Shown: positions 27,790 to 31,585 of the stretch, piece after piece
Layout: every line of letters starts with the position of its first letter
Numbering within the stretch: position 1 is the stretch's first letter
UHGV virus genome: UHGV-1372004
DNA length: 37,243 bases
Origin: a virus
Strand: one strand, 5' to 3'
Translations under genes and position numbers: made by a program
The notes under the pieces: generated by a model
The model's database searches: none
What the model was told of the DNA's origin: nothing
Seen by the model: the letters and a program-made list of their open reading frames with translations, nothing else

Positions 27790-28188
27790 TTATTTATTTG
27801 CTTTTTTAATCAGATTGACCAGTTCGCTGTCTATTACCTCTTTTACTCCGATAATTTCTTGCTCTTTTTGTTTATAATCAAAGAAAGATTTGAAGGTTTG
27901 ATAAATCGGAACTTGTTTTTTACCTTTTTTCTCTTGTGCTTGAACTTCGTAATTTTTCCAAGCGGCAAGATGAATCAAATATTCTTTGTCTAACATTTTT
28001 AACTGGTGAGCTTTTTGCCTTAGTCTGTATTCGCTTATTGTTAAGCGATCCATTTGATTAAAATCATTTATTCCCAAATAACGTAGACAATTCAATTGAA
28101 ACTCTTCATAAATTTCATCAAAATCTATCTTTTCTGTAATTCTTCTAGAAGTTGGTTTGTCTTCAATTTTGTAAATTCCGACTTTTTT
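27790..28188 (-). CDS. tail assembly chaperone T portion, made as a G-T fusion by −1 programmed frameshift
   Basis: slippery heptamer A AAA AAG at 28182-28188 in the G frame; the −1 frame continues ...KKVGIYKIEDKPTSRRITEKIDFDEIYEEFQLNCLRYLG into the 27790..28095 ORF. Confidence 0.55.
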   Translation of the reverse strand, partial: KKVGIYKIEDKPTSRRITEKIDFDEIYEEFQLNCLRYLGINDFNQMDRLTISEYRLRQKAHQLKMLDKEYLIHLAAWKNYEVQAQEKKGKKQVPIYQTFKSFFDYKQKEQEIIGVKEVIDSELVNLIKKANK

Positions 28189-28469
28189 AACTCTTCTAAA
28201 ACATCATCAAACAACTGCTCGCTACCATTTTCTTCAATGTAATCTGCAATTGCGATCTCACTTACTTTCGGTGTTTCTGTTGAATTAGCAACTTTCAACA
28301 TCTCTACAAGAGTTTCTACATCTTTATTAAGAAAATTTGATAATATTGTTTCCATTCCCATTTTCATCGTTAACCCTTGTTCAGTCACAGAATATCGACG
28401 ATTCATCTCTTTAATGAATCCATAACCAAAAATAAAATCATATTCTTTTTCCTTTATAACTAGCCTCAT
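28125..28469 (-). CDS. tail assembly chaperone G
   Basis: 114 aa acidic protein between major tail and TMP; contains the A AAA AAG slip site near its 3' end. Confidence 0.6.
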   Translation of the reverse strand: MRLVIKEKEYDFIFGYGFIKEMNRRYSVTEQGLTMKMGMETILSNFLNKDVETLVEMLKVANSTETPKVSEIAIADYIEENGSEQLFDDVLEELKKSEFTKLKTNQLLEELQKR

Positions 28470-28514
28470 TGCTTTTCATCCTCCTTAAAATAAAAAGAGA
28501 GCATCTAAGCTCTC

Positions 28515-29066
28515 TTATTTTCCTGGTGCAGTTGCTTTCACGGTATCTTTGAATGCATATTGAACAACATCGGCTTGATCTTCTGTCAAGGTTGCATAAC
28601 CATCTTGACCAACACCATTTACTGCAAATGATAAACTTAATTCAACGTTATCCTCTGCAGCAGCCGATGGAGTAAATTCAGACACATATGCTTGGTAATA
28701 AGTAGCTTTGTACTTGTTTGCATTATCATCTGTTCCCTGTTCTGCTTTGTTGATTTCCCAAATTTCAATGATATCGCCATTTAATAAGGCTTGTTTCATT
28801 TCATCTACATGAGAATCGCCTTTGGCAACTATTGAAGTAGCCGAAAAATCATATTCAACTGGGCTTAAACTTTGAACGTTTCCGTCTTTTGTCACTGTAG
28901 AGTCTGAATCTCTTGATAAACCATTTTCGTGTTCTGTTTGAAATGCCATTTTCCAAGCAGCTTCCTGAGTTTCTTTTTTCAATAAGCGATAAAGCAAAAT
29001 GACATCAATACCTTTTAATGCTTCCATGTTCTTCCTCCTATCTAATTCTAAATTCAAGTGTGACAA
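28515..29066 (-). CDS. major tail protein
   Basis: 183 aa, position relative to the G/GT/TMP genes, terminator-like hairpin downstream. Confidence 0.6.
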
Positions 29067-29789: not shown

Positions 29790-30078
29790 TTAAACTATTT
29801 CTATATGCTGTATTTCTAGCTGTTTTTTGTTGCCAAGTCTTTCCTTCAATCTCGATATAGTCAAATGTAGGGATAGAAAAAAGAGGCTGCGTCCTAATGA
29901 CCTTCGCCCCTTCTTCCACACTACCAAAAATAGTCACACTTCTATCAGTGCCAATATCTGTCACGTTTGCCTCTGTTCTTGTTCTTTCTGGTTTTCCTTC
30001 AACCCACTCACCGAGATCTGGATCATATTTAGAGTCAGATGAACGTTTAACAAATATAATTTCATCTGTAAATCTCAT
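29752..30078 (-). CDS. head closure / head-tail adaptor protein
   Basis: 108 aa, conserved position. Confidence 0.4.
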   Translation of the reverse strand: MRFTDEIIFVKRSSDSKYDPDLGEWVEGKPERTRTEANVTDIGTDRSVTIFGSVEEGAKVIRTQPLFSIPTFDYIEIEGKTWQQKTARNTAYRNSLIVQEVVLDEGTT

Positions 30079-30404
30079 ATAAATTTAAACCTCCCTCGCT
30101 TTGGCTTGTACAACTCTTCCTGATCTTTACGCTTAAATTCGTCAATCTCATTTTGATACTCTGAAAAATCCGAATCAGGAAAAGCCATCGATAAACCCTC
30201 TTGAGCGTATGAAGTCATGCCCTCTTGCCCAATTCGGTTAAAACGTTTGTTCGTTACGTCAAAAACGATGTATTCTAGTGATTCTGGTGTAACAGAAACG
30301 CCTAGCAATGACGCTAAGCGCTCTCTAGTTCGTCTCTCGATAACTTCTAGCTTATCATCTGTAGAACCGCTTAGAAGCTTCTTAACGTCATCTTTAATTA
30401 CCAT
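30075..30404 (-). CDS. head-tail connector (gp6/gp15-like)
   Basis: 109 aa, first gene after the capsid gene. Confidence 0.45.
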   Translation of the reverse strand: MVIKDDVKKLLSGSTDDKLEVIERRTRERLASLLGVSVTPESLEYIVFDVTNKRFNRIGQEGMTSYAQEGLSMAFPDSDFSEYQNEIDEFKRKDQEELYKPKRGRFKFI

Positions 30405-30419
30405 TCGTACCTATCCTTC

Positions 30420-30706
30420 CTACGGCTCAGTCAGTGTCAAAACGTGAGTATCTGTGTGTGATCCATCTTCCGTTTTTATTGTTGTCGTGTATTTACCGGC
30501 TGGTACTGTGTCAGTCCAAGTGATATTACCGCTAGAAGAAACCGTCAATCCGCTTGTTACTGGCGCAATTGAATACGTCACTGTTTTATTTGTTGCGTTT
30601 TGTGGCGCAACGGTGGCTGTTAATTGTCTATTGCCAGCAGTCCCCGCAACTGCGCTTGAGGTTTTAGGCGTTACAGTAACGCCTATAACGGGGATTGTTA
30701 CTCCCC
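30420..30706 (-). CDS. Big_2 Ig-like C-terminal extension of the major capsid protein, reached by an apparent −1 frameshift at GCG GGG GAG just before the capsid gene's TAA
   Basis: manual translation of the −1 frame gives GVTIPVIGVTVTPKTSSAVAGTAGNRQLTATVAPQNATNKTVTYSIAPVTSGLTVSSSGNITWTDTVPAGKYTTTIKTEDGSHTDTHVLTLTEP (a classic Big_2 domain), 95 codons open to TAG at 30420-30422, no ATG start. Confidence 0.55.
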
Positions 30707-31585
30707 CGCCGGTTCAATTTTACCGAACGCAGCATCTTTGACGATCATAAAGCCGACATCCATTGTTGCACGCAACGCAACCAGCTCTTGTTCAAACAAG
30801 TTTACAGGAGTGCCATCTTCGTTTTTAAGCGTAGATAATTGCGCATCTTCTGAAATCTTGAACGAAATGTTGAATGGGATACCATAGAACATATAGTTAA
30901 AGTCACCAGCGTACAATTCACCTTTACCCAATGCTTTCAAGTCAACCACAGGAAGACCATCAATCGTATTCGCCGAGCGGTCATAGATAAATTCAACGTT
31001 TGTACCGACTGTTTGAGCGGCAGAACGCAATTCTGTGCGGTTTTTACGATTTGAGATGAACGCATTTGGTTCAAATTCATTTTTGCCTAAAGCATCTTCT
31101 AATGCCAAAATGTTGTCATAAGTCAAAGGACCTTTGATAACATTAGCCGCTGCAACGACAGATTCTTCTAAAGACTGTGGAAACGGATTGTCAGTGTTTA
31201 GTAATGCAGCCGCATCAAACTTTTTGTAGAAAGCTTCAGCAATTTTAGGTTGCATAACAGTGAAGAAATCTGACATTTTGTAGTGCAAGTATTCACGAGA
31301 CACAGGAATAATCACGCCTAGCTTTTTAGCTACCATTGTCGCTTGCAACCATTTAGGTTTAGATGTTTGAATCTTCTCACCTTCACCAACCCAGTATGCG
31401 CCAGGACCTTCAGCAAAGTATTCAAATTTCTTTTCCTTATCTGTCATTTCTTCGTATTTCGCCAATTGCATTACTTTCGAGTTTTCCATAATGTCGTTGA
31501 TAATCAAAGTATTATACTTGTCAGGGATTTTACCCTCTTTAGTTTCATAAACTGTTACGTTATCTGGATTCCATGTTTGTGCCAT
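30698..31585 (-). CDS. major capsid protein (HK97 fold)
   Basis: 295 aa; ELVALRATMDVGF and overall phage_capsid-family pattern; downstream of the scaffold gene. Confidence 0.8.
   Translation of the reverse strand: MAQTWNPDNVTVYETKEGKIPDKYNTLIINDIMENSKVMQLAKYEEMTDKEKKFEYFAEGPGAYWVGEGEKIQTSKPKWLQATMVAKKLGVIIPVSREYLHYKMSDFFTVMQPKIAEAFYKKFDAAALLNTDNPFPQSLEESVVAAANVIKGPLTYDNILALEDALGKNEFEPNAFISNRKNRTELRSAAQTVGTNVEFIYDRSANTIDGLPVVDLKALGKGELYAGDFNYMFYGIPFNISFKISEDAQLSTLKNEDGTPVNLFEQELVALRATMDVGFMIVKDAAFGKIEPAGE

Follow-up and report, generated by a model that had tools for sequence, protein, structure and literature searches.

A candidate −1 frameshift cassette that would add an Ig-like domain to a phage major capsid protein

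We asked how an open frame that follows a phage major capsid protein gene, and that encodes an immunoglobulin-like (Ig-like) domain, could be translated when it contains no ATG. The locus lies on the minus strand of virus genome UHGV-1372004, and the whole stretch of DNA that was analysed, 37,243 nucleotides (nt) in length, is called the window below. A preliminary description of the locus had proposed that the capsid protein probably gains the domain through a −1 frameshift at a G-run near the end of its gene. Our comparison of the site in relatives, of the selection acting on the −1 frame, of its predicted fold and of the sharing of the arrangement between capsid genes supports that proposal at the level of sequence. 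We put the probability at roughly 85% that ribosomes make a programmed −1 shift on the heptamer G GGG GAG, stimulated by a downstream RNA structure, and so produce a minority capsid-Ig protein of 388 amino acids (aa) that would co-assemble with the 295-aa form.

The capsid gene and the −1 frame beyond it

The open reading frame (ORF) of the capsid protein was assigned to the HK97-fold major capsid proteins by full-length matches to Pfam Phage_capsid (PF05065, expectation value (E) 1.7e-34) and to phrog_10 'major head protein' (E 6e-56), and by its place in a head module, with a DUF4355 scaffold gene upstream and a gp6-like connector gene downstream. On the minus strand it ends ...GAA CCG GCG GGG GAG TAA. 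The 295-aa length and the terminal codons given in the preliminary description agree with the sequence, but its placement of the G5 run adjacent to the stop does not hold, since the codon GAG lies between them. After its own TGA the −1 frame is open for 97 codons, and a slip on GGG is predicted to add 94 residues, giving a product of 388 aa and 42.5 kDa in place of the unshifted 33.1 kDa. The long −1 frame that had been described is thus real, although the 95 codons then counted are replaced by these two figures. The frame has no ATG and ends 15 nt before the ATG of the connector gene, both as described, and the ribosome-binding site of the connector lies within that gap. At this base composition a 92-codon open run has a probability of ~0.003. 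A comparison of the −1 ORF lengths after all window genes was uninformative, overlapping downstream genes inflating the baseline. The two frames overlap by 13 nt, between the −1-frame TGA and the 0-frame TAA, and because each frame is closed by a stop any shift must be confined to these 13 nt, in which G GGG GAG is the sole slippery element. The coordinates of all of these features are collected in Table 1.

Table 1. Features of the capsid gene end and the predicted extension in the window.
Feature	Position	Strand	Basis
Major capsid protein ORF (0 frame), 295 aa, 33.1 kDa, HK97 fold family	30698..31585	−	Pfam Phage_capsid, PHROG
−1-frame TGA, 5' limit of shift zone	30714..30716	−	three-frame translation
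Putative −1 slippery heptamer G GGG GAG (P-site GGG, A-site GAG)	30701..30707	−	only slippery element in overlap
0-frame stop TAA, directly 3' of heptamer	30698..30700	−	sequence
Outer stem 5' arm UCCCCG, beginning 6 nt past heptamer (predicted)	30689..30694	−	RNAfold
Inner hairpin AGGCGUUA-CUG-UAACGCCU (predicted)	30666..30684	−	RNAfold
Outer stem 3' arm CGGGGA (predicted)	30641..30646	−	RNAfold, comparison of cassettes
−1 extension, 94 codons (GVTIPVIGVTV...LTLTEP), predicted Ig-like (Big_2/He_PIG type) domain; stop TAG 30420-30422	30423..30704	−	pN/pS, He_PIG, PHROGs, AlphaFold, Foldseek
gp6-like head-tail connector, next gene	30075..30404	−	Pfam Phage_connect_1 E 1.6e-9

Whether the −1 ORF behaves as coding sequence was judged in a set of 99 loci that encode relatives of the window's capsid protein. 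The same junction, followed by a −1 ORF of ~92 codons, was present in 30 of them, which correspond to 14 unique nucleotide versions. Among the 13 unique versions of equal length, 52 sites are variable, distributed 10/10/32 over the three codon positions, and the ratio of nonsynonymous to synonymous polymorphism (pN/pS) is 0.19 in the −1 frame as against 1.59 and 1.90 in the other two frames. Despite the 52 variable sites, no frame-breaking indel or stop was found in the −1 ORF among the compared versions. This pattern indicates that the −1 ORF is under purifying selection as coding sequence. The preliminary description had staked itself on conservation of the −1 frame at the synonymous level in relatives, and 32 of the 52 variable sites falling at the third position, with the low pN/pS, bear it out.

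The extension encoded by this frame matched Pfam He_PIG (PF05345) at E 9.8e-7 and 29.6 bits (cut-off 24), over profile positions 4-94 of 96. Its match to Big_2 (PF02368) reached only E 0.01 and 16.2 bits, below the gathering cut-off of 22.8; precomputed PF02368 matches exist on some homologues of the extension. In PHROGs it matched phrog_341 and phrog_215 and grouped with C-terminal Ig modules from 'major tail protein' families and with 'structural protein with Ig domain'. An AlphaFold model built with 38 homologues had a predicted local distance difference test score of 96.5 and nine β-strands, and its best solved match in Foldseek was the Big_2 domain of 7quz (38-40% identity, template modelling (TM) score 0.81). 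As judged from this model, the extension is a Big_2-like Ig decoration domain, for which the Big_2 name is right by fold and borderline by hidden Markov model. The earlier label of a textbook Big_2 domain therefore stands for the fold (7quz, TM 0.81) and fails for Pfam, where He_PIG lies above its cut-off and Big_2 below. Further top Foldseek matches were the Ig modules of T5 pb6, the φ29 capsid protein gp8 and λ gpV. These proteins resemble the window in carrying the same fold at the C-terminus of a major virion protein, and differ in that the domain is in frame, every subunit is decorated and no recoding is needed. The concept of promiscuous phage Ig domains is said to go back to Fraser and colleagues in 2006.

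The slip site and its predicted stimulator

Since the preliminary description had pointed to relatives as the place to check the slip site, we compared the heptamer across all carriers of the arrangement and found it conserved in register. 'NNG GGG' stands in a fixed register in every one of them, and the sequence is slippery for a −1 shift in the same register throughout. The codon before GGG varies (GCG, GTG or ACG, for Ala, Val or Thr) while its third-position G is kept, and the A-site codon is GAG or AAG. Of the 64 codons, 12 allow re-pairing in the −1 position by Watson-Crick or G·U pairing, and these two are among them. Re-pairing of tRNA-Gly from GGG to GGG is perfect, whereas that of tRNA-Glu from GAG to GGA, or of tRNA-Lys from AAG to GAA, needs one G·U pair. 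Among the Gly codons of the window's structural genes, GGG is used least (6/84). A variant with four Gs, GTG GGG AAG, keeps the downstream ORF and the structure. A close counterpart is known: GGGGGAA ('fivetwo') is a recognised non-canonical −1 motif that is reported for ~1000 actinophage tail-chaperone shifts and is explained by G·U re-pairing (PRFect paper, PMC10885494). Its G GGG GAA and the window's G GGG GAG would both be read by tRNA-Gly and then tRNA-Glu. The actinophage sites differ in lying in the tail-chaperone G/GT gene of phages of high-GC hosts, and in being annotation-based, none having been individually tested.

The 0-frame stop is TAA or TAG in all carriers but one. In this one (L030, IMGVR_UViG_2558860768_000002) TAA has become CAA, so that the 0 frame runs on for five codons (…AGEQQSPL*), and the −1 Ig ORF is intact; a stop right after the heptamer is therefore not strictly required. 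Two other ways of passing the stop were considered and set aside. Readthrough would not reach the domain, because the 0 frame meets TAG four codons past the TAA and the domain sits in the −1 frame. A 'shifty stop' slip, in which GAG would occupy the P site and the stop the A site, is less likely because the stem would then lie only 3 nt past the A site, and it is also disfavoured by the four-G variant and by a natural in-frame variant with six Gs, both of which indicate the GGG codon.

Downstream of the heptamer, RNAfold predicted a structure of −22.7 kcal/mol (z −2.8), consisting of an outer stem that encloses an inner hairpin. Its distance of 6 nt from the heptamer lies within the 5-9 nt that are canonical for a stimulatory structure. 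The predicted stem starts at +13 from the P-site GGG, that is, at the mRNA entrance, and its 5' arm uses CCC, which is the least frequent Pro codon of the structural genes in the window (2/47). If this structure were a mere consequence of the encoded peptide, then it should also be seen in genes that encode the same peptide segment by themselves. Five stand-alone genes for that segment (...P..VTGV.LSPKTS.A.AGTAG) served as the control. Both arms of the outer stem were present in 9 of 9 unique cassette segments, while UCCCCG and CGGGGA occurred in none of the five stand-alone genes; CGGGGA lay outside the search pattern with which the cassettes had been collected. Folding energies ranged from −14 to −24 kcal/mol for the cassettes and from −8 to −13 kcal/mol for the stand-alone genes. 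In the L129 group a hairpin of other sequence (GAGAGCG-UGA-CGCUCUC) occupies the same place, with the outer stem kept and a predicted energy of −26 kcal/mol. Support for the predicted structure rests on thermodynamics, on rare-codon use and on this stand-alone control.

Taken as a mechanism, these features would work as follows. Most ribosomes would read GCG GGG GAG TAA and release the 295-aa capsid protein, while a minority, with the G+C-rich stem at the mRNA entrance, would move back one nucleotide on G GGG GAG. The tRNA-Gly would re-pair perfectly from GGG to GGG and, if tRNA-Glu were already in the A site, it would re-pair from GAG to GGA with a G·U pair at the middle position. Translation in the new frame would then continue for 93-94 further codons to yield the 42.5-kDa capsid-Ig protein, and this long form would co-assemble with the short form, its Ig domain on the capsid surface, in a ratio set by the efficiency of frameshifting. 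We infer the occurrence and rate of slippage, the tRNAs that slip and the surface exposure of the domain. The junction peptide is predicted to read ...EPAGGVTIPV (...IEPAGGVTIPVIGVTVTPK) for a slip in the P site, as in the preliminary description, and ...IEPAGEVTIPV... for a slip of both tRNAs. By analogy, the domain may serve in weak adhesion to carbohydrate or in stabilisation of the capsid.

A cassette shared between capsid families

The same arrangement was found after three head-protein families that are unrelated to one another: phrog_10, to which the window's capsid protein belongs, phrog_29/Phage_cap_E (L101 and the L129 group) and phrog_1623 (L103 and EG-TP1, the latter an isolated temperate phage that carries the cassette behind its phrog_1623 capsid). 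In all of them the sequence takes the form G(C/T)G GGG GAG TA(A/G) NNN UCCCCG ... GCGGGGAC, with the Ig module in the −1 frame. Pairwise nucleotide identity between the families is 0.24-0.30 over the 90 nt upstream, as in random sequence, 0.83-1.00 over the 12 nt of slip site and stop, and 0.68-0.78 over the next 60 nt. This jump at the slip site places a homology boundary immediately 5' of the G-run. The slip site, stop, RNA stem and Ig module thus appear, in their sequences, to behave as one unit moved by recombination. We lean towards the broader view that a mobile module includes the recoding signal itself. This module, made up of G GGG GAG, the stop, a two-helix RNA stimulator and a Big_2-like Ig domain, would have been placed by recombination behind the genes of no fewer than three unrelated capsid families. 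The A2 cassette, which has been validated by experiment, behaves likewise.

The Ig module is out of frame in 33 of the 34 cassette carriers. The remaining one (L162, IMGVR_UViG_3300012836_000003), of the phrog_29 / Phage_cap_E type, has six Gs and a continuous capsid-Ig ORF of 461 aa (...DVGGVVIP...), which equals the product of a P-site slip hard-wired in DNA. A true hard-wired variant is one possibility for this contig, an assembly error in the homopolymer the other.

Within the window's own lineage, the capsid gene has a hot spot at its 3' end, where alternative modules occur that fall into five classes. Class A, with 30 loci including the window, has G GGG GAG (or AAG) TAA and the Ig domain in the −1 frame. 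Class B, with 40 loci including vB_ElaS_B1578, has xxC CCA AAA GCG TAA CGCCUG and a different Ig-like ORF in the −1 frame; vB_ElaS_B1578 shares 93.5% nucleotide identity with the window over half of the window's length. Eight loci, including IME197 and EFC-1, make up class C and have G GGG GAG TAA followed by a −1 tail of 20 codons. The five loci of class D, with capsid proteins that are 96-98% identical, end ...CCA GAA GGG TAA and have no extension. In class E, formed by clostridial prophages of ~70% identity, no slip site is needed, since a β-sandwich of ~95-110 aa (Pfam S-l_SbsC_C) is fused in frame. This in-frame C-terminal β-sandwich sits at the identical junction, which indicates that the junction tolerates a domain. 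Every class with a −1 ORF in the capsid lineage has a stable predicted structure at the 6-nt spacing, in unrelated sequences. At one and the same codon, the window's cassette, the A2 cassette, an A118-type cassette, a mini-extension of ~21 aa, in-frame fusions and the absence of any extension alternate.

Several observations accompany these classes. The capsid C-termini of L006-L019, prophages in clostridial metagenome-assembled genomes, match Pfam S-l_SbsC_C, the C-terminal domain of the S-layer protein SbsC, at E 2e-16, and L012 has a different domain of ~130 aa to which no family was assigned. A conserved −1 mini-extension of ~21-23 aa recurs behind genes of three kinds: one for a capsid protein of the window's family, one an ORF of 394 aa and one for a major tail protein. 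It is found in L002/L003 (IME197 and EFC-1) at ~2380-2460, in L102 at ~1950-2020, and in L104 and ~13 similar viral contigs, with GGVTSPVVGKVTPTTNGATIELT, VASPTVGAVTPTTDGANIELS and VAIPVIEKVTPTTDGAVVNLK as examples, and its slip-prone sites are GCG GGG GAG TAA, ACG GGG AAG TAG and CCG GAA AAG TAG. This peptide is similar to the linker and first strand of the Ig module; it may be what is left of a truncated module, or a short tail with a function. The record named 'Acinetobacter phage D2SVT' (PQ554527.1) returned match statistics equal to those of vB_ElaS_B1578 (PQ283533.1) in every search; the two records appear to represent one Enterococcus-type phage, and the Acinetobacter host label of the former looks doubtful.

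Competing explanations and known systems

Three other explanations of the locus were weighed against a ribosomal frameshift. If the Ig ORF were a separate gene, then GGGGGAG would serve as its Shine-Dalgarno sequence, translation would start at an ATC (30693-30695) and the product would be a free decoration protein of ~90 aa. GGGGGAG is indeed Shine-Dalgarno-like and stands 5 nt before this in-frame ATC, the one conceivable start in a frame whose first GTG (30581) falls in mid-domain; NCBI and phage records do list the ORF as a stand-alone gene, and genuine stand-alone proteins with the module exist in other phages. But no start is conserved, the ATC being GTC in many carriers (L032, L029, L103 and EG-TP1), and annotated gene calls begin at mutually inconsistent places (MPVIGV.., MRENPTGGGV.., MTGVTI..). 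The true stand-alone genes, in Bacillaceae and Enterococcus phages, have an ATG, an intergenic gap of ~75 nt and an extra N-terminal domain of ~60 aa, a domain that the window ORF lacks, and they carry no RNA stem. Without the ~60-aa domain a free Ig module would have no anchor, and the six-G variant and the in-frame relatives point to the fusion as the functional form. A slip site lies in the overlap of the two frames, and the downstream frame lacks any initiation signal; on this evidence the Ig ORF is not translated independently, as far as its sequence can tell, and we consider a separate gene highly improbable. Slippage at the level of the nucleic acid, with RNA polymerase turning G5 into G6 transcripts or with phase variation of the G-run in DNA, would give the same fusion. 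Homopolymer runs are classic slippage sites, and L162 is a natural contig with six Gs and an in-frame fusion. Efficient slippage or phase variation of this kind, though, usually needs a run of ~8 or more, and G5 is well under that length. The four-G variant that keeps ORF and structure, the 33 of 34 carriers that are out of frame, and a structure at 6 nt with register-specific 'NNG GGG', which are features of slippage by the ribosome and not by the polymerase, all make this explanation very unlikely too.

The third possibility is that the extension is an evolutionary leftover, a former in-frame fusion that lost one G and is no longer usefully expressed, or that a G is missing through sequencing error. 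The close relatives of class D that lack an extension would fit such decay, as would IME197 and EFC-1, which keep only a 20-codon −1 tail after the same slip site. Against it, the G5 junction recurs in 30 loci of the lineage (14 unique sequences) and in two other capsid families, and this recurrence rules out sequencing error; the ORF shows the signs of purifying selection described above, with neither stops nor indels at 52 variable sites; and the rare codons that build the stem are kept only in the frameshift context. We hold a leftover to be very improbable.

The frameshift reading itself has points to answer. G GGG GAG does not follow the canonical X XXY YYZ pattern, because re-pairing in the A site from GAG to GGA takes a central G·U pair. 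In a motif scan of viral contigs, 87 of 121 pattern matches were unrelated to the cassette, many of them terminator-like hairpins, and the slip-site motif by itself is not diagnostic. Carriers of the L101 group have a weak inner hairpin, the outer stem does not vary among carriers and so offers no compensatory covariation, and no Rfam family came near any threshold for the window's site. The five capsid proteins of class D, 96-98% identical and without an extension, indicate that the domain is dispensable in the lineage. No publication that reports the window's cassette was found. All of these weigh against a programmed frameshift.

Programmed frameshifting at the end of a capsid gene is not without precedent. 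The preliminary description had called the decoration of capsids with Ig-like domains by frameshifting at the 3' end of the capsid gene established in phages, and T3, A2 and A118/A500 are precedents for it (PMC5009743), reviewed also by Fraser et al. 2006; −1 frameshifting in the A118 and A500 coat genes is stated by Atkins et al. 2016 (PMC5009743). The window's capsid protein has a homologue in the Cps protein of Listeria phage A118, with 37% identity (E 2e-65) in a full-length alignment that extends to the C-terminus. The A118 heptamer, which we read off the sequence, occupies the same two codons before TAA (GCG GGA AAC TAA in A118, GCG GGG GAG TAA in the window), a stem follows 6 nt downstream (−22.9 vs −22.7 kcal/mol), and a gp6-like connector gene comes next. 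Unlike in the window, the heptamer is the canonical G GGA AAC, and the −1 extension is a HeH/LEM-type domain of ~52 aa (ORF7), with no Ig domain. The −1 frameshift in Cps of A118 and A500 was reportedly described by Dorscht and colleagues in 2009.

For Lactobacillus phage A2, García et al. 2004 are reported to have documented a −1 frameshift in the major head protein that yields a second capsid component. A2 gp5A/gp5B resembles the window in a −1 shift a few codons before the capsid stop, in an Ig-like addition of ~85-95 aa and in a structure just downstream. The A2 orf5 junction, ACC CCA AAA GCG TAA CGC CTG, is letter for letter the class B junction of the window's sister phages; vB_ElaS_B1578, whose capsid protein is 87% identical to the window's, carries it, and extensions of the B1578 type share homology with that of A2 (38% identity, E 2e-9). 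By sequence, the capsid protein of A2 has no relationship to the window's capsid lineage. Between A2 and the window itself, heptamer, stem and Ig module all differ, and their extensions do not match significantly (E 0.54). The A2-type cassette, C CCA AAA with a homologous extension, was thus not found in the window, and is found in its sister phages. What has been described for φEf11 is a different site, a speculative A7 followed by an extension of 21 aa, which lacks support from mass spectrometry. The window's locus belongs to a known kind; its points of note are the non-canonical heptamer in a low-GC host and the evidence for movement of the cassette between unrelated capsid genes.

Relatives of the Ig module also occur as proteins in their own right. 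In the Bacillaceae-type phages L222, L224, L225 and L227 (~1501-2000 in each) the module is part of a stand-alone protein of 154-166 aa with a conserved N-terminus of ~60 aa, M..FKIYKGDEVV.EGESPL.ITGL..., whose gene lies ~75 nt past the major capsid or tail-tube gene. The product is probably a decoration protein with a gene of its own, which would be another route to the same decoration. In public records, Ig ORFs that are accessed by frameshift stand as separate genes whose GTG or ATC starts are arbitrary, as in L001 at 2403-2666 (PQ283533 gpB15781_7), L230 at 1477-1749 (PQ571292 EG-TP1_gp52) and P0001-P0003, under the labels 'hypothetical protein', 'structural protein with Ig domain' and 'putative Ig domain-containing protein'. 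In the record of vB_ElaS_B1578 the phage A2 junction C CCA AAA GCG TAA is present and unrecognised.

Elsewhere in the window, on the same strand, a pair of tail-assembly-chaperone genes (28125-28469 and 27790-28095) contains a −1 slip site, TTA AAA AAG (A AAA AAG), at 28182-28188. The site falls close to where the 114-aa G-like ORF ends, and the T-like ORF stays open across it in the −1 frame, which marks a second, canonical frameshift in the window. A terminator-like hairpin, GAGAGC-UUAGAU-GCUCUC with a U-run (28487-28515, minus strand), directly follows the major tail protein gene (28515-29066) and precedes the chaperone gene. The major tail protein gene has no frameshift extension, unlike those of A118, PSA and A2. 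A recurrent hairpin, GCGGGGGGAG-UAAUU-CUCCCCGC, was met after short ORFs in L106, L107, L112-L117 and ~50 other viral contigs of one gut-metagenome phage group; it has the look of an intrinsic terminator and no relation to the Ig cassette.

For annotation, the Ig ORF is routinely called an independent gene, in NCBI Enterococcus genomes as in vB_ElaS_B1578 and EG-TP1, and a joined, frameshifted coding sequence would be apt. For recoding, the locus adds a well-supported candidate for a non-canonical −1 site, G GGG GAG, in low-GC Gram-positive hosts, and one in which slip site, stimulator and domain would be inherited jointly. If the broader view of a mobile module is true, then a frameshift with its decoration domain would be a plug-and-play unit, as opposed to a domain that by chance lands out of frame and then evolves a slip site, and G GGG GAG would be established as a real site of slippage in Firmicutes of low GC. 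Phages of Enterococcus are candidates for therapy, and sub-stoichiometric decoration of their capsids with Ig domains may be relevant to adhesion to mucus or cell surfaces. The cassette would be a natural and portable means of displaying a domain on a fraction of the capsid subunits.

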